This document shows, piece after piece, positions 2-11,157 of a stretch of DNA of 11,367 nt (the first letter of the stretch is position 1; each line of letters starts with the position of its first letter). The notes below the pieces were generated by a model that saw nothing but the letters and a program-made list of their open reading frames with translations, was not told the DNA's origin and did no database searches. Origin of the DNA: a bacterium (GTDB taxonomy: Bacteria > Arandabacterota > Arandabacteria > Arandabacterales > JALGWA01); contig JASFEA010000101.1 in the NCBI GenBank assembly GCA_050125095.1, forward strand, positions 1-11,367, read 5' to 3'. Both the position numbers and the translations under genes were made by a program.

Positions 2-2473
2 AAGGCGGCCGGGAAAACTGGGCGCAGCAGCGGGAAGAAGACTGCGAAGCGGCCGGGCCGGAAGTCCGCGAAGCCGCGCGGGACCACCAGGGGCCCCAGG
101 GTCGTGAAGACGGCCACCGTGGGAGACCCCAGCATACTCGTTGAGCCCGGCGCCCCCAGAATTCAGAAACTGCCGGGCGAGCTGGGCATCATCCCGCTCA
201 GGGACACGGTGATCTTCCCCTACATGATAGCGCCGCTGGTCATCGGCAGGCAGAGGTCGCTTCGCCTGGTCGATGAGGCCGCGAACGGCGACCGCACCAT
301 AGGCCTGGCGACCCAGGTAAGGCCGGACATAGAGATGCCGACCCCGGCCGACCTCTATAATGTCGGGACGGCGGCCACCATACTCAAAATGCTCAAGTTC
401 CCCGACGGCAGCACGCGGCTTCTGGTGCAGGGCATCGCGCGCGTAGAGATCAAAAAGTTCACGCAGGAGGAGCCGTATCTCAGGGCGAGCGTTACGGAGA
501 TCCCGGAGGTCAGCGACGAAAGCGTGGAGGCCCAGGCGCTCTTGAGAAACGCCTCCGGTGTGTTCAACAAGATAGTCGCGCTCTCTCCCCATCTGCCGGA
601 CGAGCTCCAGGTAGCGGTCATGAATATCGACAATCCGACGAGGGCGGCGGACCTCATCGCCTCGAATATCAATCTGACCACTGCGGAGAAGCAGGACATC
701 CTTGAGACATTCGACACCAAGCCCAAGCTGGAGCGGCTCATCAATTATCTGAACCGCGAGCTGCAGGTGCTGGAGCTCGGGAGCAAGATACAGTCGGATG
801 TCAAATCCGAGCTCGACAAGACGCAGCGCGAGTACTACCTGCGCGAACAGCTCAAGGCCATAAGGCGGGAGCTCGGCGAGGGCGACGAGCGCACGATGGA
901 GATAGAGGAACTCAGGGAAAAAGTAAAGGCCGCGGGAATGAGCGAGCGCGCCGAGAAGGCCGCGGAGAAGGAAATAGACCGGCTCGGGCGCATGCCGCCG
1001 CAGGCGGCGGAGTACACGGTTTCCAGAACCTATCTGGACTGGCTGGTCGGGCTGCCCTGGTCGGTGAGCACCGAGGACGTGCTGGAAGTGCCGGCGGCCG
1101 CGAAGATTCTGGATGAGGACCATTATGATCTGGAGAAAGTAAAGGAGCGCATTCTCGAGTTTCTCGCCGTGCGGAAGTTAAAGAAGGAGACCAAGGGTCC
1201 GATTCTCTGCTTCGTCGGTCCGCCCGGCGTCGGCAAGACGTCGCTGGGCAAGTCTATCGCGCGGGCGCTGGGGAGGAAATTCACCAGGATTTCGTTAGGC
1301 GGCGTGCGGGACGAGGCCGAGATCCGGGGCCACCGCCGGACCTATGTGGGCGCATTGCCCGGCAGGATCATTCAGGGCATCAGGCAGGCGGGATCCAGAA
1401 ATCCGCTGTTCATGCTCGACGAAGTGGACAAGCTCGGGACCGACTTCCGCGGTGACCCCTCGGCCGCGCTTCTGGAGGTGCTCGACCCGGAGCAGAACGA
1501 GAATTTCTCCGACCACTATCTTGAGGTTCCGTTCGACCTGTCCCGGGTAATGTTCATCACCACGGGCAACGTACTCCATACCATACCGCCGGCCCTCCTG
1601 GACCGGATGGAGGTGATCGAGCTTCCGGGCTACACCGACGGGGAAAAGGTGGAGATCTCGAAGAAGTTTCTGATACCCCGCCAGCTGGAGGGCCACGGAC
1701 TCACGGGGGACAATATCGAGTTCGGAGACGACGCGCTTCGGCTGCTCATTTCGGAGTACACGCGCGAGGCGGGCCTGCGCAACTTCGAGCGGGAAATAGC
1801 CAACATCTGCAGAAAGGTCGCCCGGAAGGTGGCGGAGGGCGAGAAGGACAAGGTGAACATAGATGCGGCCGCGGTGGCCGAATTGCTGGGGCCGAGCAAG
1901 TTCTTCAGGGATGCGGCCGAACGCACAATGGCGCCGGGCGTCGCCACCGGCGTCGCATGGACCGAGGCCGGCGGCGATATCATTTTCGTGGAAACCAGTA
2001 TGATGAAAGGCGGCAAGTCGCTCACGCTGACCGGTCACCTGGGAGACGTCATGCAGGAGTCGGCACAGGCCGCGCTCACTTACGTGCGGTCTAACGCCGA
2101 GACCCTGGAAGTGCCGCCCGACTTCTATGAGAAAAACGACCTGCATGTCCATGTTCCCCATGGGGGCGTTCCCAAGGACGGCCCCTCAGCTGGAGTCACC
2201 ATAGCGACGAGCATGGTTTCGCTCTTAAGCGGCAAACCCGTCAGACCCGATGTGGCCATGACCGGCGAGATCACTCTCAAGGGCAAGGTCCTCCCCGTGG
2301 GAGGCGTGAAGGAGAAGATACTGGCTGCGCGCAGGGCCGGTATCAAGACGGTCATTCTTCCGAGGAAGAATGAGAAGGACCTGAGCGAAGTCCCGGACAT
2401 CGTCAAGAAGGGCATCACCTTCGTCTTTGTCGATAATCTTGACGAAGTCTTCAAAGAAGCCCTGACAGGATAG
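2..2473 (+). CDS. lon: ATP-dependent Lon protease (LonA, endopeptidase La); probably 5'-partial, since the frame is open from the window edge (the ORF track starts it at GTG 104)
   Basis: Lon N-domain (IPLRDTVIFP), 'QREYYLREQLKAI', Walker A GPPGVGKTS, 'IRGHRRTYVGALPG', Walker B FMLDEVDK, catalytic Ser motif PKDGPSAG and Lys motif VGGVKEK. No in-frame stop between 2 and 104, and no clear RBS before GTG 104. Stop TAG 2471-2473. Confidence 0.97.
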   Translation, partial: KAAGKTGRSSGKKTAKRPGRKSAKPRGTTRGPRVVKTATVGDPSILVEPGAPRIQKLPGELGIIPLRDTVIFPYMIAPLVIGRQRSLRLVDEAANGDRTIGLATQVRPDIEMPTPADLYNVGTAATILKMLKFPDGSTRLLVQGIARVEIKKFTQEEPYLRASVTEIPEVSDESVEAQALLRNASGVFNKIVALSPHLPDELQVAVMNIDNPTRAADLIASNINLTTAEKQDILETFDTKPKLERLINYLNRELQVLELGSKIQSDVKSELDKTQREYYLREQLKAIRRELGEGDERTMEIEELREKVKAAGMSERAEKAAEKEIDRLGRMPPQAAEYTVSRTYLDWLVGLPWSVSTEDVLEVPAAAKILDEDHYDLEKVKERILEFLAVRKLKKETKGPILCFVGPPGVGKTSLGKSIARALGRKFTRISLGGVRDEAEIRGHRRTYVGALPGRIIQGIRQAGSRNPLFMLDEVDKLGTDFRGDPSAALLEVLDPEQNENFSDHYLEVPFDLSRVMFITTGNVLHTIPPALLDRMEVIELPGYTDGEKVEISKKFLIPRQLEGHGLTGDNIEFGDDALRLLISEYTREAGLRNFEREIANICRKVARKVAEGEKDKVNIDAAAVAELLGPSKFFRDAAERTMAPGVATGVAWTEAGGDIIFVETSMMKGGKSLTLTGHLGDVMQESAQAALTYVRSNAETLEVPPDFYEKNDLHVHVPHGGVPKDGPSAGVTIATSMVSLLSGKPVRPDVAMTGEITLKGKVLPVGGVKEKILAARRAGIKTVILPRKNEKDLSEVPDIVKKGITFVFVDNLDEVFKEALTG

Positions 2474-2492
2474 CCAGCCATGGAGGGCAGAA

Positions 2493-4190
2493 TTGAAAGA
2501 CCCTCATAGCAGGGAGCCCGTGCGCTGCTGGGAAGAGGTGGCCTGCGGGCGTCCGGACTGCGAGGCGCATGAGAATGAAAACGCGCCCTGCTGGCTTCTT
2601 CCCGACAGCCGCTGTTTCGACCGCCCCACATGCCTTACGGAGAGGCTCACGATCAGATGCGCGGACTGCCCGGTTTTCAAAGCGCACCGGGCCCGCGCCG
2701 AAGGGAAGCGGACCTCCGACGGGGCCGTGGTCGGCACCATGGAAGGCCTTCTTTCCGAATGCGCCGAGCTGCTGTCCAGCTCGGAGACTCTCAAGAGAGA
2801 CCTCAGGACCAAGTCGGCCGAGGTTACGCTTCTCGGTGAAGTGGGCCGGGCGCTGCAGAGCACCATGGAGCTGGATGAGCTCCTTATGGTCATACTTACG
2901 GCGGTTACGGCCGGCGACGGCCTGGGATTCAACCGCGCCTTTCTGATCATGCTGAACAAAGGCGGAAACGCGCTGGAAGGGCGCATGGCGGTAGGGCCCT
3001 CGCGCCCCGACGAGGCTGAGACAATATGGGGCGCGATGAAGCACGAGGCGAGGAGCTTCGGCGAGATCCTGGCAGGCCCATCCTCGGGCCGTGACGGCGC
3101 GGCGGGCATCATGCGACTCGCCCGCACGATAAGGCTGTCCGCCGACCCGGGGTGCGGGATCGTGGCCCGCAGCATGGAGGAGGGCGTCGCCTACAGCATA
3201 GACAATGCCCGCGAAATCCCTGAAGCGAGGGTACTGGCGGATTTGATAGAGAGTGACTCCTTCATAGTCATGCCGCTGGTGGCCAAGGGCAGGAAGCTAG
3301 GCGCGATCGTCGCCGACAACTTCGTGACACGGCGGGCGATCTCCAGAGAGGACGTGAGGCTGCTGGAAACGCTGGCCAGCCAGGCGGCGCTCGCAATACT
3401 AAACGCATCGCTTCACAGCAGGCTGCAGGAACGGCTTAGACAGCTGGAGGACGCCCACAGGCAGCTGATGCAGGACCAGCTCCAGCTCATGAGGGCCGAG
3501 CGGCTGGTGGCTGCGGGCGGTCTGGCGTCGACCCTGGTTCATGAAATCAAGACGCCGCTTGTTTCCATCGGCCTCATGGCGAGGGCCGCGGCGGCCGAAT
3601 TTCTGGACGGGCATAAGGTCAGAGACGTTCTCGACAAAATCGCCATGGAAATAGTCAGGCTGGAAGACTCACTCAAGCACATTGTGAAGTCCACAAGCGG
3701 ACTCAGCCGCGAGACAGTCCCCATCGACGTATCGTCGCTGGTCGGGGAGACTCTTGATCTTCTTGCGGGCGTCACAGCCCGGGCGGGCATCGAGGTCGTT
3801 TATGTCCCGGGTCACGGCGACGTCGTGGTGATGGGGAGCCCTGTGGAACTCAGGCAGATGTTGCTGAATATACTGCATAACTCGGTTGAGGCGATGTCCG
3901 ACGGCGGCAGCCTTACCTTGAGGACTGAAATGCAGGGCGCCATGCTGAAATTGAGCGCCGAGGACACGGGATGCGGCATGTCCGAAGACGTGCGCGAGCG
4001 GATCTTCTCCCCGTTCTTTACCACCAAGCGGGAAGGCTCGGGCCTGGGTCTCGTGATCGCCCGGAGGATCGCCGCGGATCACGGCGGAAGGCTGTCATTC
4101 GAGAGCAAGGAGGGAGAAGGGACCTGCTTCCATGTCCATCTGCCTGTCGCGCAGGGGGCGCCGGAAGAGGCTGATTCCACACCCAAGTGA
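2493..4190 (+). CDS. Cytoplasmic sensor histidine kinase: N-terminal Cys-rich (two-CW-like) domain, GAF domain, HisKA, HATPase_c
   Basis: TTG start 6 nt after GGAGG (2482-2486). H-box LVHEIKTPL, N-box LLNILHNSVEAM, G1 DTGCGM, F-box IFSPFFTTK, G2 GSGLGL. GAF-like 'GLGFNRAFL...FIVMPL...LGAIVADN...DVRLLETLASQAALAI'. Eight Cys including two CW dipeptides in residues 12-59. No obvious transmembrane helix. Confidence 0.93.
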   Translation: MKDPHSREPVRCWEEVACGRPDCEAHENENAPCWLLPDSRCFDRPTCLTERLTIRCADCPVFKAHRARAEGKRTSDGAVVGTMEGLLSECAELLSSSETLKRDLRTKSAEVTLLGEVGRALQSTMELDELLMVILTAVTAGDGLGFNRAFLIMLNKGGNALEGRMAVGPSRPDEAETIWGAMKHEARSFGEILAGPSSGRDGAAGIMRLARTIRLSADPGCGIVARSMEEGVAYSIDNAREIPEARVLADLIESDSFIVMPLVAKGRKLGAIVADNFVTRRAISREDVRLLETLASQAALAILNASLHSRLQERLRQLEDAHRQLMQDQLQLMRAERLVAAGGLASTLVHEIKTPLVSIGLMARAAAAEFLDGHKVRDVLDKIAMEIVRLEDSLKHIVKSTSGLSRETVPIDVSSLVGETLDLLAGVTARAGIEVVYVPGHGDVVVMGSPVELRQMLLNILHNSVEAMSDGGSLTLRTEMQGAMLKLSAEDTGCGMSEDVRERIFSPFFTTKREGSGLGLVIARRIAADHGGRLSFESKEGEGTCFHVHLPVAQGAPEEADSTPK

Positions 4191-5419
4191 CGACCATATT
4201 ACTACAGATAATATTCCTCGGAGTCCTGCTTGTCTTCTCAGCTCTGTTCTCCGGTTCAGAGACCGCCCTCTTCTCCCTGAAACCCTTCGAGATACGAAAG
4301 CTCGAACGCCGGCCCTCTCGCCGCTCCATCGCCGTCGCCTCGCTGCTTTCGGATCCCGTGAGGCTGCTCGTAACCATACTGGTCGGGAACACGCTCGTCA
4401 ATGTCGCGGCTTCGTCCATCGGAACCAATATCGTGGGACACGTGTTGCACAAGGGAGTCATCGGGATCAGCGTGGCCGCGATGAGCATACTCATACTCAT
4501 ATTCGGGGAGATCGTCCCCAAGACCTACGCAGTTACCAAGCCCCTCAAGACGGCGCTGAGAACGTCCGCGCTCATATCGTTCGCCGTCAAAGTCATGTCT
4601 CCGCTGCGCGCCTGCTTCACCGCGCTGACGGGCCTCGCGGCAAGGACCAGGCTGCCGGGTTCTGCTATGCCGGACCATGAGCACGCCCATGTCGTGGAGG
4701 CCGTGTCGGCGGGCCATACCGAAGGCGTGCTGGACGGTCTGGAGCGCAGGATGCTTGCGGGTTTCCTGAAGATCGAGCACCAGTCCGTGCAGAACATCAT
4801 GACGCCGCGAACCGAGGTCTTCATGGTGGACGCGGGGACGCGGGTGGCGGACGCGGTGGGCCCGTTCAAGTCGGCGGGCTTCTCCAGGGTGCCGGTATTC
4901 GAGACCGAGAACAGGGACAACATCAAGGGAGTCGTCTATGTGAAGGACCTCCTCCACAAGCAGTACAGCGAGAACCTGAGCCTCAGCGACATAGCGCGGC
5001 GGCCGGTTTTCGTCCCCGAGTCCAAGTCGCTTGCGGACCTTCTCAGCGAGTTCGTGAAAGGCGCCGCCCACTTCGCGGTGGTGGTGGACGAGTACGGCTG
5101 CTTCTGCGGGATAGTCACGCTGGACGACATAGTGGAGGAGATAGTGGGCGAAGAGCTCGACGCGAGGTCCAAGAACACTTACCGGAAGAAGACAAGGTCG
5201 GCCTATGAAGTCTCTGCGAGGATGGAGCTCGAGTACTTCAACGCGCTTATGGGCTCGTCGCTTGTGGATAATAACGCCGAGACCGTCGGCGGGTTCATAA
5301 TCAACCGGGTGGGCAGGATACCGGCAACAGGCGATGAGTTCATTTTCGAGGGCATAGGGTTCAAGATTCTCGAAGCCGACTCGCGCCAGATCAAGCTCCT
5401 GAGAGTACGGAAGAAGTAG
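4187..5419 (+). CDS. CNNM/CorB-CorC (HlyC/hemolysin-family) Mg2+/Co2+ transporter-like protein: DUF21 + CBS pair + CorC_HlyC domain (paralog 1)
   Basis: FSALFSGSETALFSL, TILVGNTLVN and FGEIVPK transmembrane motifs; CBS 'IMTPRTEV', 'FSRVPVF', 'FVPESK', 'VVDEYG...GIVTLDDIVEEIVGE'; C-terminal 'ETVGGFI...GRIP..GD'. GTG start overlaps the kinase TGA (GTGA 4187-4190). Confidence 0.93.
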   Translation: MTTILLQIIFLGVLLVFSALFSGSETALFSLKPFEIRKLERRPSRRSIAVASLLSDPVRLLVTILVGNTLVNVAASSIGTNIVGHVLHKGVIGISVAAMSILILIFGEIVPKTYAVTKPLKTALRTSALISFAVKVMSPLRACFTALTGLAARTRLPGSAMPDHEHAHVVEAVSAGHTEGVLDGLERRMLAGFLKIEHQSVQNIMTPRTEVFMVDAGTRVADAVGPFKSAGFSRVPVFETENRDNIKGVVYVKDLLHKQYSENLSLSDIARRPVFVPESKSLADLLSEFVKGAAHFAVVVDEYGCFCGIVTLDDIVEEIVGEELDARSKNTYRKKTRSAYEVSARMELEYFNALMGSSLVDNNAETVGGFIINRVGRIPATGDEFIFEGIGFKILEADSRQIKLLRVRKK

Positions 5420-5424
5420 GGAAT

Positions 5425-6648
5425 ATGCTGGATGTGATTGGCAATATAGCGGCCATCGTGGCTGCCGTGCTGGGATCCGGGTTCTTCTCGGGAAGCGAGA
5501 CCGCCTTCGTGTCCAGCAACCGCTTCCAGATATCGGCGATGGCCACGTCCGGGTCAATGCGGGCCCGGATGGCAAGGCGGCTGCTCGCGGACCCGAGCAC
5601 GCTGCTCAGCGTCACGCTGGTGGGGACCAATGTATGCGTGGTGCTGGCGTCCGCCCTGGCGACGGCCACGCTGGCGGACTATCTCGGAGACTACGCCGTG
5701 CTCGTTTCCACGGTGAGCGTGACGTTCTTCTTACTCGTTTTCGGAGAGATAATCCCCAAGGCGATTGCGCGGACGAGCCCCGAGGGCTTCCTCACATTCG
5801 TAGCCCCCGTGCTCGGCGTCGCGTATTACGTGCTTTACCCGGTCGCGATGGTGACGTCATCAATCGCGTCGGTCTTCGTCGGCCCTTCCGGGCGCAGAGA
5901 GAGATCGGGCGCGGTTACCCGCGAGGAAATAAGGGCGATCGTGAAGGAGATAGCAGGAGACGCCAGCAGTCTTCCCAGCCACGCTTACGCCTATCGAGTT
6001 CTTGACCTCTCCAGAATGAAAGTGACGGGTGTCATGGTGCCCATGGACGAGGTGAACTGCTTCGAGGAAGGTATGACCGTGAGACAGGTGCTTTCGGAAT
6101 CCTCGCGCAGCGGCCATTCGCGTTACCCGGTGTACAAGGGCAGCTGCGAGCACATCACGGGTGTGCTGCATATAAGAGATCTCCTGGGCGTTACGGAGGA
6201 CCGCAGCATAAGGGTCTTCTCGCGAAGCGCGCACTTCATTCCGGAGACCCAGACCGTCAGAAGGGCGATATTCGAGATGCGCGACGACCTCAGGCATCTC
6301 TCGGTTGTCACCGACGAGTACGGCCGCTCGATCGGGATTGTGACCTTCGAGGACGCCCTGGAGGAGATACTGGGCGAGATCAGCGACGAGTACGACGGCA
6401 GACAGGAGAGGGGTATCGAGATAGGCGGGATAGTGAGCGGGCGGGTACCCGTTTCGCTTATAGAGGAGGAGCTCGGGATAGAGATCCCCGAGGGCGCGGG
6501 CGACACCCTCGCCGGTTTCCTGCTTCACGTCAGCGGGGAGATCCCGCATGCCGGCGCCGTCATAGAGCATGGCAATTTCAGGTTCCATGTGGTAGAGGTG
6601 AGGGGAAACCGGATCAGGCGCGTGCGGATAGATGAGAAGGAAGAATAG
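5425..6648 (+). CDS. CNNM/CorB-CorC (HlyC/hemolysin-family) transporter-like protein (paralog 2)
   Basis: SGFFSGSETAFVS, FGEIIPK, 'VTREEI', CBS 'GHSRYPVY', 'FIPET', 'VTDEYG..IGIVTFEDALEEILGEISDEYD', C-terminal 'DTLAGFLL...GEIP..G'. Starts 5 nt after the previous stop. Confidence 0.93.
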   Translation: MLDVIGNIAAIVAAVLGSGFFSGSETAFVSSNRFQISAMATSGSMRARMARRLLADPSTLLSVTLVGTNVCVVLASALATATLADYLGDYAVLVSTVSVTFFLLVFGEIIPKAIARTSPEGFLTFVAPVLGVAYYVLYPVAMVTSSIASVFVGPSGRRERSGAVTREEIRAIVKEIAGDASSLPSHAYAYRVLDLSRMKVTGVMVPMDEVNCFEEGMTVRQVLSESSRSGHSRYPVYKGSCEHITGVLHIRDLLGVTEDRSIRVFSRSAHFIPETQTVRRAIFEMRDDLRHLSVVTDEYGRSIGIVTFEDALEEILGEISDEYDGRQERGIEIGGIVSGRVPVSLIEEELGIEIPEGAGDTLAGFLLHVSGEIPHAGAVIEHGNFRFHVVEVRGNRIRRVRIDEKEE

Positions 6649-7611
6649 ATGAAGAGGGACGTAGTCATAGCAGTCGACCTGGGAGGGACCAATCTGCGCC
6701 TCGGCGTCGTGAGCCCGTCGGGCAGGGTGCTCGCGGGGGCCAGGGCCAAGATGGGTTCCTATAAGCGTAACGCCGATCTTCTCACCGATCTTTACGAGGC
6801 CATCGCGGACTTCGAGCCGGAAGCGTCGGCCCGCGGCCGCCTGAGAGCCGTATGCCTGGGCTTCGCGGGCTACACCGACTCCGCCCGCGGCCTCATATAC
6901 TTCGCGCCCAATGTCGGCGGGCTCAGGAACATACGAGTCGGCCCCTATCTCAAGAAGCGGTTTAATGTGCCCGTCTTCGTCGAAAACGACGCCAACTGCG
7001 CCGCCCTGGGCGAGCACTATAAGGGAGCCGGCAGGAACGCCGGTAGCCTTTTCATGTTCACGCTCGGAACAGGCGTGGGCGGCGGTTTCATCGTCGACGG
7101 GAAGATCTGGCGCGGAGCCAGGGGCACGGCGGGGGAGATCGGCCATACGATAGTCATGGTGGATGGGCCGCTGTGCAGCTGCGGTAATCGCGGCTGCCTC
7201 GAGACCTTCGCCTCGGCAACCGCCATAGTGAAGGAATACCGCAGAGTAAGGAGGTCAAAGGGCCGGGGCAGGGTAGCTCCCGGCACGGGCGCCCGGGGGA
7301 AAGTCACCGCCCGCCAGGTCACCGATCTTGCCAGGCGCGGCGACAGGGCCGCGACGGCCGCTATGAAGTATGCCGCCCGGGGCCTGGGCGTGGGCATCGC
7401 CAATATCTTCAACCTGCTGGACCCCGAACTCATCCTCATCGGGGGCGGCGTGAGCAGGGCCGGCGCGGTGCTGCTCCGGCCGGCCATCATGGAGGCCAGG
7501 AAGATCGTATTCCCGCCGCTCGCCCCGCGGCTCAGGGTCAGGCGCGCGGTACTCGGCGACGACGCGGCTTTGATAGGAGCGGCCCGGTTCGCGTTCGAGC
7601 ACCTAAAGTGA
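6649..7611 (+). CDS. ROK-family sugar kinase (glucokinase-like, Zn-binding, no HTH)
   Basis: VDLGGT ATP-binding motif at the N-terminus, ENDANCAALGE, TLGTGVGGG, AGEIGH, Zn motif CSCGNRGCLE, IGGGVS, AALIGAA. AAGGA RBS at 6636-6640. Substrate cannot be determined from sequence. Confidence 0.93.
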   Translation: MKRDVVIAVDLGGTNLRLGVVSPSGRVLAGARAKMGSYKRNADLLTDLYEAIADFEPEASARGRLRAVCLGFAGYTDSARGLIYFAPNVGGLRNIRVGPYLKKRFNVPVFVENDANCAALGEHYKGAGRNAGSLFMFTLGTGVGGGFIVDGKIWRGARGTAGEIGHTIVMVDGPLCSCGNRGCLETFASATAIVKEYRRVRRSKGRGRVAPGTGARGKVTARQVTDLARRGDRAATAAMKYAARGLGVGIANIFNLLDPELILIGGGVSRAGAVLLRPAIMEARKIVFPPLAPRLRVRRAVLGDDAALIGAARFAFEHLK

Positions 7612-7674: not shown

Positions 7675-8739
7675 ATGGCCGTATTCGAGAAGCTTAAGGA
7701 CAAGAAGCACGAGCAGCTCATTTTTTTCCGGGAGCCGGTGTCGGGGCTCAGGGCCATAGTCGCCATACACGACACCACACTGGGGCCCGCGATAGGCGGC
7801 GTCCGTATGCGCACCTATTCGGGGGAGGACGAGGCGATCGAAGACGCCCTGAGGCTCTCGCGCAGCATGACTTACAAGGCGGCCGGCGCCGGCGTCAACT
7901 TCGGCGGCGGCCAGACAGTCGTGATGGGTGACCCCAGGAAGGACAAGAGCGAGGCGCTGTGGAGGGCGCTTGGCCGGTTCATCGACGGCATGGGCGGGCG
8001 GTACGTCGCCGGTCAGGACGTCGGCACTTCCGTCGACGACATGGACAATATGCGAACCGAGACCCGGTACGTAGTGGGCATCCCGAGCTCCAGGGGCGGC
8101 AGCGGCGACCCTTCCCCCGTATGCGCGTTCGGCGTCGTGAAAGGCCTCGAGGCCTGCCGCCTAGCCAGAGGGGGGAGCGACGACCTCAGGGACCTGCATG
8201 TGGCCGTTCAGGGCCTGGGTAACGCTGGCAGCCAGGTGGTCGATATGCTGATGGCCCGCGGCTCCAGGCTTAGCGTGGCCGATGTCGATGAGGAGGCGGT
8301 TGAGCGGATAACCCAGCGCCACCGGGTCGATGTGGTTGACCCCGAAGCTATATTCGACGTCGATTGCGATGTCTTCTGTCCTTGCGCCCTCGGCGGGATC
8401 ATGAACCCCGAGACCGTGAAGCGGCTCAAATGCGTAATCGTCGCGGGTGCGGCCAATAACCAGCTCTCCGATGAGGGATCTGGGAAGCTGCTCCATGAGC
8501 GCGGCATACTGTACGCGCCCGACTACATAATCAACGCCGGCGCCCTCATCAACGTCGCCGACGAAATATACGGCTACGATAGGGAGCGCGCCCTGAGGAA
8601 GACCGGCGCCATAAAGGACGTGCTACTGAAGGTTTTCGCGGCAGCCAAGGAGAACGGCATACCCACCAATGAGGCCGCCGATCGTCTCGCCGAGGAGAGA
8701 ATCGAGAAGATAGGCCGCGTCAAGCGCACATTCAGCTGA
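7675..8739 (+). CDS. Glu/Leu/Phe/Val dehydrogenase family protein, leucine dehydrogenase-like, with atypical active site (Gln at catalytic Lys80)
   Basis: Colinear with Bacillus LeuDH motifs: AIHDTTLGPAIGGVRM, LRLSRSMTYK (K68), DVGT (D115), SGDPSP, Rossmann VAVQGLGNAG...D203, PCALGG, AGAANNQL, YAPDYIINAG, AADRLAEERI. Gene symbol withheld because GGGK reads GGGQ. Confidence 0.92.
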   Translation: MAVFEKLKDKKHEQLIFFREPVSGLRAIVAIHDTTLGPAIGGVRMRTYSGEDEAIEDALRLSRSMTYKAAGAGVNFGGGQTVVMGDPRKDKSEALWRALGRFIDGMGGRYVAGQDVGTSVDDMDNMRTETRYVVGIPSSRGGSGDPSPVCAFGVVKGLEACRLARGGSDDLRDLHVAVQGLGNAGSQVVDMLMARGSRLSVADVDEEAVERITQRHRVDVVDPEAIFDVDCDVFCPCALGGIMNPETVKRLKCVIVAGAANNQLSDEGSGKLLHERGILYAPDYIINAGALINVADEIYGYDRERALRKTGAIKDVLLKVFAAAKENGIPTNEAADRLAEERIEKIGRVKRTFS

Positions 8740-8799: not shown

Positions 8800-9702
8800 C
8801 TACCGCTTCGCCTCCACGGGATTCGAGAGCGTCCCTATCCCCTCAATGATGACCTCTATGACGTCTCCGTCCTTCATGAAGACCGGCGGCTCCCTGAAAA
8901 CGCCGACCCCGCCGGGGGTGCCCGTGGAGATTACGTCGCCCGGTTCCAGGGTCATGGTCCTGGTTATGAACTTGATAATTTCGGCCGGCGTGAATATGAG
9001 GTTGGAGGTCGAACTCAGCTGCATGAGCTCGCCGTTTAACTTCGATGAGACCGAAAGGCTGCTCACGTTGCTCAGCTCGTCCGCGGTCACTATGCAGGGT
9101 CCCATGGGAGCGAAGGTGTCCGGGCTCTTGCCCCGGAACCACTGGCGCTCGGACTGCTGCATCTCGCGCTCGGTGACGTCGTTCATGCAGGTGTAGCCGA
9201 AAATCGCGTCCTGGGCGAGTGCGGCGTCCGCGTCCCTTATCTCCCTTCCGATCACGAAGGCGAACTCCGCCTCGAAATCGACCTTGCTGGAGCCTTCCGG
9301 AATCACTATGGCCTGGCCGTGGCCTATCGTCGAGGTGGACGCCTTCACAAAGAGAAGCGGTTTGTCGGGGATCTTGGCGTCCTGCTCCTTCGCGTGGTCC
9401 TTGTAATTGAGCCCCAGGCATATGATCTTGCCGGGCCTGGGCACGGGGGCGTGGAACTGGACTTCTTCCACCGAAGCCCAGCACTGCAGAGGAAGGTCTT
9501 CGCCGCCCTTATCGAGCTCCTTTATGCGCCTGGCCAGAGTCTTGAGGTCGCCGAGGTCGCGGCTGGCGATGATATCTATGAGATCGCTCGGGTAGCCGCC
9601 CTCCAGGTGCAGGAATGACGCCGTGTTCTCGATGTCGTATATGCGCTCATTGATAAGCAGGCCCGCCCTGCGGCCGCCCCGCTCGTAAGTGACCAGTTTC
9701 AA
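8800..9702 (-). CDS. Fumarylacetoacetate hydrolase (FAH) family protein (FAHD/HpcE-like hydrolase, tautomerase or decarboxylase)
   Basis: KIICLGLNYKDHAKE, LFVKA, metal-binding DFEAE, GYTCMNDVTER, GKSPDTFAPMGP, TLEPGDVISTGTPGGVG. TTG start with GGGGGAGG RBS (9709-9716, - strand) at 6 nt spacing. Confidence 0.95.
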   Translation of the reverse strand: MKLVTYERGGRRAGLLINERIYDIENTASFLHLEGGYPSDLIDIIASRDLGDLKTLARRIKELDKGGEDLPLQCWASVEEVQFHAPVPRPGKIICLGLNYKDHAKEQDAKIPDKPLLFVKASTSTIGHGQAIVIPEGSSKVDFEAEFAFVIGREIRDADAALAQDAIFGYTCMNDVTEREMQQSERQWFRGKSPDTFAPMGPCIVTADELSNVSSLSVSSKLNGELMQLSSTSNLIFTPAEIIKFITRTMTLEPGDVISTGTPGGVGVFREPPVFMKDGDVIEVIIEGIGTLSNPVEAKR

Positions 9703-9730
9703 AGCAGACCTCCCCCGGGAATTCTAATGT

Positions 9731-9759
9731 TTGAATTGTGCCTCGTTATTGAGTAGAAT
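9731..9759 (+). promoter_or_regulatory. Putative sigma70 promoter for the thioesterase-ptb operon
   Basis: TTGAAT (9731-9736), 17 nt, TAGAAT (9754-9759) in an AT-rich divergent intergenic region. Confidence 0.6.
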
Positions 9760-9783
9760 ATCCTCCGCGTTCATACCATGCAA
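9755..9783 (-). promoter_or_regulatory. Putative sigma70 promoter for the FAH-family gene
   Basis: On the - strand: TTGCAT (9783-9778), 17 nt, TATTCT (9760-9755). The -10 overlaps that of the + strand promoter. Confidence 0.55.
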
Positions 9784-9803
9784 GTCCAAACTTGGGGGGA
9801 CCC

Positions 9804-10226
9804 ATGAGCCTGAGAGACGAGGGGATGTGCTTCGGGTGCGGCAAGAACAATCCGATAGGCCTCAAGCTGGAATTCGACCTGGATAAGGAGAACCTCACCG
9901 TAGAGGGCAGGTTCAGGCCGAAGAGGGAACATGAGGGCTATGCCGGCATAATGCACGGGGGCCTGGTGGCGACGCTGCTGGACGAGGCCATGTTGAAGCT
10001 GCTCTGGGACTCGGGCATATCGGCGGTCACCGCGACGCTGGAAGTAAAGCTCGTCAGGCCGGTTCCAATAGAGGGGGAGCTCTTCATAAAGGGTCGCGTG
10101 GACTCCGAGCAGGGGCGCCTGATACACACGTCGGCCGAGGTGGCGAATGCGGAGGGCACGGTACTCGCGAAGGGAAAGGCCAAATGCATGAAAGTGGAGA
10201 TAAAGGAGGGCTACGTTGGCAGGTAA
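9804..10226 (+). CDS. PaaI-family hotdog-fold acyl-CoA thioesterase
   Basis: N-terminal CFGCGKNNPIGL motif, 'HEGYAGIMHGGLVATLLDEAM' catalytic signature, 'VTATLEVKLVRPVP'. ATG 9804 follows a G-rich RBS-like run; TTG 9792 is an alternative start. Confidence 0.9.
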   Translation: MSLRDEGMCFGCGKNNPIGLKLEFDLDKENLTVEGRFRPKREHEGYAGIMHGGLVATLLDEAMLKLLWDSGISAVTATLEVKLVRPVPIEGELFIKGRVDSEQGRLIHTSAEVANAEGTVLAKGKAKCMKVEIKEGYVGR

Positions 10227-11157
10227 GAAGTCTAAGAACGTTCGATTCAGGGACATACTCACGCTGGCCAAGAGAGTAGCCAGCCGCACCAGCACGCGCG
10301 TAGCCGTCGCCGGGGCGGCCGACCCCATAGTGCTGGACGTTCTATGCGACGCCTGCAGGAAGGGCTTCGCCGAGCCCATACTCTTCGGGGACGAGGCCAG
10401 GATAAGGGCGCTTGCCAAGAAGCAGCGCCTTTCGCTCAAGGGCTGCACCATGGCAGACGTCAGGACGCCGGTCAAGGCGGCCCGGGCGGCCGTCAGGGCC
10501 GTCGGCTCGGGCGACGCGGACGTCCTCATGAAGGGCAACGTTACCACCAAGACCATCATGCAGGCGGCGCTGGATAAGGAAATAGGCATCACCACGAGCG
10601 GCCTCATGAGCCATGTGGCCGTCTTCGAGGTCGAAGGCTTCGACCGCATAATGTTCATGTCGGACGGCGGAATAGTAATAGAGCCCACGCTCGAGCAGAA
10701 GGTGGAGATAGTCAATAACGCCGTCTCGGTCGCGCGCGCGGTGGGCCTCAAGAGGCCCAAGGTCGCCCTGCTTTCGGCCATTGAGACGGTGAACCTCAAG
10801 ATGAAGTCGGCCGTCGACGCGGCCGTTATCGCCCAGATGGCCGAGCGCGGCCAGATAAAGAACGCCGTCGTGGACGGGCCCTTCGGTTTCGATAACGCCG
10901 TCTCGTTGGAGGCGGCCAGGCAGAAGGGCGTCAAGAGCCCGGTCGCCGGGAAGGCCGACATATTCATCGTGGGCCATGCCGATGTGGGCAATGTGTTCTA
11001 CAAGTTGCTCACATATTTCGTGGGCAAGCGCGCCCAGACCGCAGGGGTCATAGTGGGAGCCAAGGTCCCCGTGGTGGTGGTCTCGAGGGCCGACACATAC
11101 GAAGCCAGGCTGAACTCCATCGCCGTGGCGTGCATCCTGGCGAGGAGGGGGAAGTAA
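10216..11157 (+). CDS. ptb: Phosphate butyryltransferase / branched-chain phosphotransacylase (PTA_PTB family)
   Basis: VAVAGA, LMKG, LMSHVAVFEV, SDGG...PTLEQKVEIVNNAV, PKVALLSAIETVN, DGPFGFDNAVS.EAA..KG..SPVAGKADI, GNVFYK, GAKVPVV..SRAD. TTG start 6 nt after AAGGAGG (10203-10209); overlaps the thioesterase end by 11 nt. Confidence 0.9.
   Translation: MAGKKSKNVRFRDILTLAKRVASRTSTRVAVAGAADPIVLDVLCDACRKGFAEPILFGDEARIRALAKKQRLSLKGCTMADVRTPVKAARAAVRAVGSGDADVLMKGNVTTKTIMQAALDKEIGITTSGLMSHVAVFEVEGFDRIMFMSDGGIVIEPTLEQKVEIVNNAVSVARAVGLKRPKVALLSAIETVNLKMKSAVDAAVIAQMAERGQIKNAVVDGPFGFDNAVSLEAARQKGVKSPVAGKADIFIVGHADVGNVFYKLLTYFVGKRAQTAGVIVGAKVPVVVVSRADTYEARLNSIAVACILARRGK

Follow-up and report, generated by a model that had tools for sequence, protein, structure and literature searches.

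A conserved branch of leucine dehydrogenase-like proteins without the catalytic lysine and with an apparently remodelled substrate pocket

The 11,367-nucleotide contig JASFEA010000101.1, analysed over its full length and referred to as the window, carries at 7675..8739 on the plus strand a gene of the leucine dehydrogenase (LeuDH) family, denoted gene A, whose product (protein A) lacks the catalytic lysine of these enzymes. Its open reading frame, Pfam domains, gap-free alignment to a LeuDH structure, clade and codon substitution rates show gene A to be intact, under selection and part of a LeuDH-family branch that lacks the lysine. Lys80 is the textbook catalytic residue of Leu, Phe and Val dehydrogenases, which are of industrial interest for tert-leucine production and as templates for amine dehydrogenases, and a natural, conserved branch appears to have discarded it and rebuilt the first shell. 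Judged from its residues, protein A very probably no longer performs the textbook LeuDH reaction. The reading favoured here, at a probability of about 40%, is that it would be an oxidoreductase limited to hydride transfer, acting on 2-oxo acids or on pre-formed 2-imino acids.

The frame of gene A is intact, opening with ATG and encoding 354 amino acids with both ELFV domains, PF02812 (E 2.8e-24, 85.7 bits against a cut-off of 25.3) and PF00208 (E 1.6e-16, 61.2 bits against a cut-off of 23.4); with both above the Pfam cut-offs, protein A is a member of the ELFV superfamily. Alignment to the LeuDH of Lysinibacillus sphaericus (PDB 1LEH) extends over residues 1-353 without gaps (E 9.3e-124), and LeuDH numbering is therefore directly usable, in line with the colinearity noted in the initial annotation, which had been made from the DNA sequence. 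No curated model was passed by protein A; the best NCBIfam match was Trp_DH_ScyB (378.2 bits, cut-off 600), with no LeuDH-specific model among those listed, and the protein atlas returned generic LeuDH-family clusters only.

Codon 80 (CAG, 7912..7914, plus strand) places glutamine at the site of the general base Lys80 in the alignment to 1LEH. Protein A accordingly reads NFGGGQT where 1LEH, 6ACF and 8HPE carry GGGK or GGAK, and the hallmark lysine of LeuDH is absent; Lys80 itself was checked residue by residue only in the structures 1LEH, 6ACF, 8HPE and 8GXD. The open reading frame, its translation and this alignment agree on the glutamine that had been reported at first reading. The further differences from 1LEH given there (A113G, E114Q, T134V, T150C, G290A and V291L) are likewise all present, together with two that had not been listed, L40I and T112A. 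Comparison across the clade described below marks out codon 40 (ATA, 7792..7794), a pocket residue that is Ile in place of the canonical Leu, codons 112-115 (8008..8019), which read Ala-Gly-Gln-Asp in place of Thr-Ala-Glu-Asp, and codon 150 (TGC, 8122..8124), which is Cys in place of Thr, all on the plus strand. The carboxylate-binding lysine is retained at codon 68 (AAG, 7876..7878, plus strand), and D115, N261/N262, the GLGNAG motif and D203 are intact, as had been stated.

The glutamine codon is reproducible across assemblies. CAG at 7912-7914, where confirmation of the first base had been advised, was identical in the contigs of 4/4 public runs from four studies (Logan), evidence which consists of assembled contigs and not raw reads and in which one of the four runs may be the source sample; two of the four contigs represent a strain of ~99% identity with 10 differences elsewhere in gene A. 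For relatives, the survey covered the 120 best-matching 90%-cluster proteins, the query among them. Clade A comprises 77 of these, with Gln (62), His (14) or Tyr (1) at position 80 in combination with Cys150 (76) or Ser150 (1); of the remaining rows, 42 carry Lys80 and Thr150, and P0083 has a small deletion there and is otherwise clade-A-like. Identity to the window protein is 61-100% within clade A, and the score falls from 497 to 451 bits where Lys80 begins, so that the clade is not defined by the trait alone. For the wider family, Lys80 is present in 142/150 and Thr150 in 141/150 of the best 50%-cluster representatives.

In a tree of 94 rows the 29 sampled clade-A proteins formed one clade among the Lys80 LeuDHs, with a stem of 0.28 and full support in the Shimodaira-Hasegawa-like approximate likelihood-ratio test (SH-aLRT 100), and the His80 and Tyr80 proteins formed a single subclade within it. 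Removal of the trait columns (40, 80, 112-115, 137, 142 and 150) left clade A monophyletic, with 16/16 members together in a quick tree (support 100) and 9/9 in a careful tree (100/99). The suggested clade of homologues thus exists, with Gln, His or Tyr at position 80 (77/120, support 100), and the close orthologues are without Lys80. The ratio of non-synonymous to synonymous substitution rates (dN/dS) was 0.045-0.146 in 6/7 clade-A orthologue pairs, the seventh being saturated. Codon 80 of clade A is CAG or CAA (Gln), CAT or CAC (His) or TAC (Tyr), and never AAR (Lys), one step from Gln; the replacement of Thr (ACN) by Cys (TGY) at position 150 requires two base changes. The change had been ascribed to selection and not to accident, a view which the clade-defining nature of the substitution, the dN/dS of 0.05-0.15 and the concerted pocket changes sustain. 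A single base separates AAG from CAG, which spoke for a private mutation, a sequencing error or a decaying pseudogene; this explanation is ruled out by the four runs, the 77/120 closest proteins without Lys80, the intact frame and the dN/dS, and the residual probability accorded to it is negligible.

A search for fused forms matched 23 longer proteins, all ≤50% identical and none of clade A. A scan of genome contigs with the window protein gave 48 loci, two of which (L004 and L016) were clade A, and 46 were canonical at Lys80 where the region was present. The open-access full-text literature yielded no description of a lysine-less LeuDH-type protein, and source annotations label clade-A proteins "leucine dehydrogenase".

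The substitution at position 80 is accompanied by changes around it. Comparison of the 77 clade-A proteins with the 42 nearest Lys80 proteins gave seven clade-defining substitutions besides that of Lys80, namely L40I, T112A, S137P, S142G, T150C, A218V and N302D. Position 40 is Ile in 71 of the 74 clade-A proteins with a residue there (Leu in 42/42 Lys80 proteins), position 112 is Ala in 77/77 (Thr in 42/42), and position 150 is Cys in 76/77 and Ser in the remaining one (Thr in 42/42). Positions 113-115 read AEG (48), GQD (18, the window type), AED (7), AQD (2), GED (1) or AQG (1). Asp115 is found in the window protein and 28/77 of clade A, and Gly115 in 49/77. GQD, proposed as a shared mark of the homologues, therefore describes the subclade of the window (18/77), whereas most of the clade (48/77, AEG) lost Asp115 instead; similarly, the two charged residues said to be lost, Lys80 and Glu114, are the pair missing from that subclade, and most members lost Lys80 and Asp115. 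Ala290 is limited to the window's subclade. The carboxylate anchors are retained (K68 in 77/77, N261 in 77/77 and N262 in 73/77), as is the NAD site at the level of sequence (G180 and G182 invariant, G185 in 76/77, D203 in 77/77).

A list of 24 substrate-shell positions was compiled from a table in PMC8766677, excerpts of which describe L40 as lining the binding pocket, T112, A113, E114 and D115 as first-shell or catalytic, and T150 as the counterpart of T153 of phenylalanine dehydrogenase (PheDH), within 6 Å of the substrate. Three of the seven clade-defining substitutions (40, 112 and 150) fall within these 24 of 354 positions (hypergeometric P = 0.008). Mean column entropy over the 24 pocket positions was 0.42 in clade A and 0.38 in the Lys80 LeuDHs (n = 42), over 16 NAD-site positions 0.50 and 0.46, and over the whole protein 0.86 and 0.85; given these near-equal values, the ligand sites of clade A are held as tightly as those of working enzymes. 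Only four positions conserved in Lys80 proteins are relaxed in clade A (1, 46, 60 and 64), none of them in the pocket list. Relocation of the catalytic lysine was considered and rejected, as no new conserved Lys or His occurs among the clade-A-specific conserved positions. On this comparison the first shell around the substrate C2/N is remodelled, by L40I, T112A and T150C in combination with D115G or E114Q, and the concerted nature of the changes points to remodelling, not just inactivation. Set beside LeuDH (EC 1.4.1.9; 1LEH, Geobacillus 6ACF, Bacillus bcd), protein A is alike in fold, length, K68, N261/N262, NAD motif, D203 and small hydrophobic pocket, as well as in its Ptb/Buk-type gene neighbours, but clade A lacks Lys80, has Ile40, Ala112 and Cys150 fixed and has lost Glu114 or Asp115.

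The consequences for catalysis were considered with residue roles drawn from parts of two reviews and one engineering paper. In LeuDH, the mutations K80A, K80Q and K80R abolish almost all activity, part of which is restored by amines (Sekimoto 1993, relayed in a section of the review PMC12018205). Passages of PMC6033044 describe how the equivalent lysine of PheDH deprotonates ammonium through water, activates water on the iminium and deprotonates the carbinolamine, while the leaving amine takes up its proton from Asp118; the lysine also keeps the keto group at a distance of 5.1 Å from C4 of NAD(H), so that it is not reduced to the hydroxy acid. With Lys80 absent, and Asp115 too in most members, the ammonia/water half of the reaction should no longer be runnable. 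Protein A would still bind NAD(H) and a 2-carboxylate ligand and would still transfer hydride, the water/ammonia half-reaction of Lys80 (with Asp115) having been dropped. Its substrate would then need no carbinolamine chemistry, and could be either a 2-oxo acid, reduced to the 2-hydroxy acid, or a pre-formed (cyclic or N-substituted) 2-imino acid. Loss of Lys80 would also remove the safeguard against direct carbonyl reduction, and the loss of hydroxyl or charged groups at positions 80, 112, 115 and 150 may leave room near the C2 substituent. The neighbouring genes suggest a place in short- or branched-chain acyl metabolism, with an FAH-family hydrolase and a thioesterase-Ptb pair beside gene A and, elsewhere in the genome, a butyrate kinase (Buk) with a paralogue of gene A, denoted B.

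Lactate/malate dehydrogenase (LDH/MDH), D-2-hydroxyacid dehydrogenase (D-2-HADH), DpkA and ornithine cyclodeaminase/mu-crystallin were the families compared by fold. Above cut-off protein A shows ELFV domains only, and neither a 2-hydroxyacid dehydrogenase nor a ketimine reductase fold; should its substrates be oxo or imino acids that it reduces, it would work like the LDH/DpkA-type families without membership of them. A further parallel is offered by imine reductases, in which, according to excerpts of PMC6033044, the position of the catalytic lysine of the related hydroxyacid dehydrogenases is taken by Asp, Tyr or Asn. The pair of imine reductases and beta-hydroxyacid dehydrogenases (HIBDH) resembles the proposed case in that chemistry switches on lysine replacement with NAD(P)H hydride transfer kept, but the fold is unrelated, and the likeness is a mechanistic analogy and not one of membership.

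The initial annotation had seen one gene; its loss of Lys80 stands, and the gene belongs, as one branch, to a broader set of LeuDH-like proteins without the lysine that is found in several phyla. A search with P0136, which has Ile40, Ala112 and Cys150 and no Lys80, gave a second such clade, A2, of 70 proteins (P0136 and P0271-P0339) that are 51-100% identical to P0136 and 39-44% identical to the window protein (12 aligned). Position 80 is here Tyr (31), Gln (15), Glu (14), His (7), Ala (2) or Ser (1). Position 40 is Ile, Met, Leu or Val, Ala112 is found in 60/70, Pro137 in 69/70 and Gly142 in 65/70, and position 150 is Cys (53), Gly (15) or Ala (2). The anchors are again kept (K68 in 70/70, N261 in 70/70, N262 in 68/70), which makes Lys68 invariant in both clades, and position 115 is Asp (45) or Glu (25); all 25 Glu115 proteins carry Tyr80 and may be one subclade. 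Source names of A2 include Acidobacteria, "Candidatus Defer...", Delongbacteria and Omnitrophota. Loss of the lysine thus goes together with a shared set of substitutions (I/M40, A112, P137, G142 and C150) in A and A2, and the solved structures closest to either clade are ordinary entries for LeuDH, TrpDH and PheDH.

The A2 proteins group as a clade (100/100) with a long stem. Clades A and A2 stand apart in the quick and careful trees on an unsupported backbone and are joined in 4% of bootstrap trees; the approximately unbiased (AU) test does not reject them as one clade (p 0.80), and the constrained tree is 30.85 log-likelihood units better than the quick free tree. A metagenome scan with P0136 kept 80 loci, one of which (L098) was A2, the rest being ~41-46% identical to P0136. 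A2 was present in 1/301 sampled Acidobacteriota genomes and in 1/10 genomes of the class of its carrier, G087, and in 0/112 genomes of the class of G019, a set without a positive control.

Further proteins without Lys80 were observed outside A and A2. Five (P0363, P0365, P0367, P0376 and P0378) form a separate clade with Asn80 in which Thr112 and Thr or Ser150 are kept; the source names of two of the five are Ignavibacteriales and Ignavibacteriae, and the clade looks like a third loss of the residue. Among the best 150 50%-cluster representatives, P0123, P0177, P0183, P0188, P0231, P0233 and P0268 are also without it (Q, M, R, S, A, S and T, respectively) and show other pocket changes. Loss of Lys80 is, as far as these alignments go, recurrent in the LeuDH family.

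The distribution of gene A was surveyed in all 18 species genomes of the window's phylum, of which 16 (families f1 and f2) make up the window's order and two family f3. The window's own genome is 3.35 Mb in 268 contigs and 91% complete. Gene A is present in 15/16 genomes of the order, apparently Candidatus Eisenbacteria, taxon names resting on few source labels, with one clade-A member labelled "Candidatus Eisenbact...". In two genomes the gene is broken, probably by assembly artefacts: the match at G009:C314:10-1065 has one in-frame TAG near the contig start, and in G015 it is split over two contig ends (C63 and C54), one piece with a TGA. The same 15 genomes carry gene B, 42-46% identical to A; the single genome of the order without either is 57% complete, and both are missing from the two f3 genomes (96% complete each).

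In the window's genome gene B lies at G000:C78:11773-12825 on the minus strand (1468-2556, minus strand, of locus L002) and carries K68Q, A113Y, N261Y, N262D and G290E, with Lys80, Asp115 and Thr150 kept. Throughout the order B has Gln68 (15/15), Tyr113 (15/15), Tyr261 (15/15), Asp, Asn or His at 262 and Glu290 (14/15), and keeps Lys80 (14/15, one Met), Asp115 (15/15) and Thr150, as confirmed against 6ACF; its dN/dS of 0.08-0.11 indicates purifying selection. The B of genome G013 (L079, G013:C81) combines Met80 with Gly290, the other 14 having Lys80 and Glu290. Positions 68, 114, 261 and 291 had been named as those altered in engineered amine dehydrogenases, in agreement with the consulted part of PMC8766677. 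Such enzymes (K68S/N261L and derivatives) drop the carboxylate anchors and keep Lys80 and Asp115, and protein A shows the reverse: replacement of Lys68 and Asn261 is found in B and not in A, and from its residues B resembles a natural version of the engineered K68/N261 amine dehydrogenases.

Neither the window's own genome, nor the 15 related A-bearing genomes, nor the Acidobacteriota genome G087 yielded a canonical LeuDH. The second canonical LeuDH whose presence in the genome had been raised is therefore missing, B (Gln68, Tyr261) being the only paralogue. The suggested parallel to GdhA, a regulatory subunit of a normal enzyme, is not supported on the same ground, since the sole other family member lacks Lys68 and Asn261 and no normal partner exists. 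GdhA of Thermus thermophilus (PDB 3AOE) is the regulatory subunit of the GdhA/GdhB glutamate dehydrogenase, as set out in part of bioRxiv 10.1101/2025.10.31.685773. It resembles protein A as an ELFV paralogue kept by selection without the family activity, but it has a normal catalytic partner, GdhB, and is of the glutamate dehydrogenase type, the 3aoe chains matching protein A only at E 6e-12 to 7e-9.

A different partnership would be a hetero-oligomer of A (K68/N261/N262, no Lys80) and B (K80/D115, no K68 or N261), in which one paralogue regulates the other or captures substrate for it, an explanation that overlaps with the sensor discussed below. The losses are complementary (in B, Gln68 15/15, Tyr261 15/15, Lys80 14/15 and Asp115 15/15), both genes are under purifying selection, and each genome with either has both (15/15), although the counted genomes are kin and their co-occurrence is weak evidence. 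In G087, the operon at 2786-6060 of L178 (G087:C187) comprises a B-like gene, a butyrate kinase gene and an A2 gene with Glu80. The B-like protein has Gln68, Asn80, Gln261 and His262, and G087 contains no other LeuDH homologue; with the Asn80 of this protein and the Met80 of the G013 protein, B is not always "catalytic". In the window's order, moreover, A and B are on different contigs. In ELFV structures each active site is formed within a single subunit, between its two domains, which leaves no room for the lending of residues across subunits. A functional A/B oligomer is hence regarded as distinctly improbable. The G087 operon is followed by two SpoIIE-type phosphatase genes, and neither LeuDH homologue of that genome has Lys80.

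The surroundings of gene A are those of short-chain acyl metabolism. The locus runs from Lon through a GAF histidine kinase gene, a pair of CNNM/CorC genes and the ROK kinase gene to A, followed by a convergent FAH gene and a hotdog thioesterase gene overlapping Ptb, and the core from ROK to Ptb is found in 12/12 loci (those of the window and of 11 further species of the order). Downstream of A lie the convergent FAH-family hydrolase (8800..9702, minus strand; PF01557, E 6.9e-73), for which no NCBIfam model reached cut-off, the hotdog (4HBT) thioesterase-like gene (9792..10226, plus strand; PF03061, E 9.9e-10) and the phosphate butyryl/acetyl-transferase gene (Ptb; 10216..11157, plus strand; PF01515, E 5e-46), which overlaps the thioesterase gene by 11 bases; each is present in 12/12 loci. 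Ptb scores 315.7 bits against NF006045 (cut-off 282), on the transferase half of that model, and 339.5 bits against TIGR02706, below the cut-off of 410.5. NF006045 describes a bifunctional enoyl-CoA hydratase/phosphate acetyltransferase, and Ptb matches its C-terminal half; the thioesterase-Ptb pair may be a split form of an NF006045-type fusion.

Gene B is followed by a butyrate kinase gene (TIGR02707, 477 bits, cut-off 289) and a short-chain enoyl-CoA hydratase gene in 4/4 long loci, and by butyrate kinase in 12/14 short loci; in family f2, genes for propionyl-CoA carboxylase, methylmalonyl-CoA mutase and the epimerase are divergent from the B locus. A second butyrate kinase above cut-off was seen away from the B locus at G003:C25:40117-41163 and G012:C4:13569-14618, both in f2. 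The two f3 genomes, which lack A and B, also have no butyrate kinase above cut-off and no PTA_PTB gene, which is one contrast only. On the metagenome contig L098, butyrate kinase and A2 are followed by a convergent hotdog thioesterase and FAH hydrolase, 32% and 33% identical, respectively, to their counterparts in the window. A2 thus comes after butyrate kinase in 2/2 contexts, and FAH and thioesterase come after A2 in 1/2. A ptb-bcd-buk gene order is that of the Bacillus operon, and the recurring combination of A, B, Buk, Ptb, thioesterase and FAH resembles this module in remodelled form.

Given this position, protein A could be a leucine or valine dehydrogenase of a sort at the head of the Ptb/Buk pathway, in which the amino acid is oxidised to the 2-imino acid and this is released and hydrolysed off the enzyme, or slow activity proceeds via another base, so that the enzyme would be effectively catabolic and poorly reversible. 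Gene A takes the place of bcd beside ptb/buk-type genes where canonical LeuDH is absent, its pocket is still LeuDH-like, and an acidic residue at 114 or 115 in 76/77 clade-A proteins (Asp or Glu115 in 70/70 A2 proteins) could still bind the amino group. Some activity does survive in K80 mutants, but it is small, and K80Q leaves a genuine LeuDH almost without activity (PMC12018205, in part); the PheDH lysine, moreover, also starts the reaction by deprotonating ammonium through water (excerpt of PMC6033044), and no conserved Lys or His has been relocated among the clade-specific positions to replace it. The window's genome also encodes one class-IV (branched-chain) aminotransferase and four 2-oxoacid:ferredoxin oxidoreductase alpha subunits, by which branched-chain amino acids can reach acyl-CoA without a dehydrogenase, making such an entry unnecessary. 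Residual or imine-releasing LeuDH activity as the function of A is considered unlikely. A reductive Stickland branch was also looked for and rejected, as the sole HGD-D match lies beside a radical-SAM gene, DUF366 and leuS, with no Had-type system.

Several observations weigh against an oxidoreductase limited to hydride transfer. Position 80 is variable (Q/H/Y in A; Y/Q/E/H/A/S in A2), so residue 80 is not a new catalytic residue, and variable replacement of the lysine is the pattern of a proven pseudoenzyme clade, the alanine-dehydrogenase-like ADLP. With Gln80 and Gly115 (49/77 without Asp115) no obvious acid remains for the alkoxide, which counts against 2-oxo acid reduction in those members; for an imine that is protonated beforehand, the loss of Asp115 would be less of an objection. 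The A2 pocket is far less constrained than that of A (entropy 0.95, whole protein 1.14), and the trees and the AU test are compatible with one origin as well as with two for A and A2. The 12 syntenic loci all come from a single order, and their synteny may reflect inheritance and not function; the link in context across the clades comes from only two A2 contexts; and no 2-hydroxyacyl-CoA dehydratase system to consume a 2-hydroxy acid was found in the window's own genome.

The same variability would be expected of a non-catalytic, ligand-sensing pseudoenzyme that binds NAD+/NADH and/or a branched-chain amino or oxo acid and signals to Buk, Ptb/thioesterase, FAH or B. ADLP of Thermus thermophilus is an NAD+ sensor that inhibits CoA transferase, its clade showing lysine replacement of this kind while NAD(H) binding is kept and the regulated enzyme is adjacent (bioRxiv 10.1101/2025.10.31.685773, in part). 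It is like A in the clade-wide, variable replacement of the catalytic lysine and in its position beside a short-chain acyl enzyme, and in protein A, too, the cofactor site is kept at sequence level; it differs in its alanine dehydrogenase fold, in having proven partner and binding, and in that the pocket of A is remodelled and not merely disabled. The features common to GdhA and ADLP, loss of the catalytic residue in a whole clade with retention of the cofactor site, are found in A by sequence. The sensor also gains from the loss of Asp115 in 49/77 clade-A members, the conserved NAD and carboxylate sites, the short-chain acyl enzymes adjoining genes of both clades, and B, present in 15/15 A-bearing genomes and, as the B-like gene, in one operon with A2 in G087; B, Buk, Ptb and FAH are the candidate partners in the genome. 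However, one substitution suffices to kill catalysis, leaving the fixed L40I, T112A and two-step T150C unexplained unless the ligand also changed. Neither the window's genome nor its relatives nor G087 offers a canonical LeuDH partner, and no fused or adjacent partner is constant over both clades, A not being beside butyrate kinase in the window's order. A sensor is thus a serious but tentatively held alternative, and the proposal of altered chemistry or a ligand-sensing pseudoenzyme made at first reading survives with both halves as the two live readings.

If the hydride-only oxidoreductase is nevertheless the right reading, clades A and A2 could together be a new class of ELFV-fold oxidoreductases, performing only the hydride step on 2-oxo/2-imino acids, with an anchor-less paralogue, within a remodelled ptb-bcd-buk pathway that replaces canonical LeuDH in several anaerobic phyla; this broader claim is put forward as doubtful. 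Clade A stands in for the normal LeuDH in its genomes and accompanies acyl-phosphate/acyl-CoA genes. As an enzyme it would be an untapped natural template for NADH-dependent chemistry on 2-oxo/2-imino acids, and as a pseudoenzyme it would be a new kind of sensor, for metabolites or redox state, in the fermentative metabolism of short-chain acids; the label "leucine dehydrogenase" would mislead metabolic reconstruction of Eisenbacteria and other uncultured anaerobes.

Of the remaining genes in the window, the ROK-family sugar kinase upstream of A (6649..7611, plus strand; PF00480, E 1.5e-68) is present in 12/12 loci, separated from A by a gap of ~60 to ~750 bases across them. A 406-amino-acid reading frame at 9771-10991 on the minus strand belongs to no family and was rejected as the shadow of two real plus-strand genes, thioesterase and Ptb. 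In two loci, L083 and L087 (genus g6 only), two extra minus-strand genes without a family lie between A and FAH (~9040-11000). Further upstream in the window are Lon protease (104-2473), the GAF histidine kinase (2493-4190) and two tandem CNNM/CorC-type paralogues (CNNM + CBS + CorC_HlyC; 4187-5419 and 5425-6648, plus strand), and those loci of the order that extend to this point share the arrangement of Lon, GAF kinase and CNNM/CorC.

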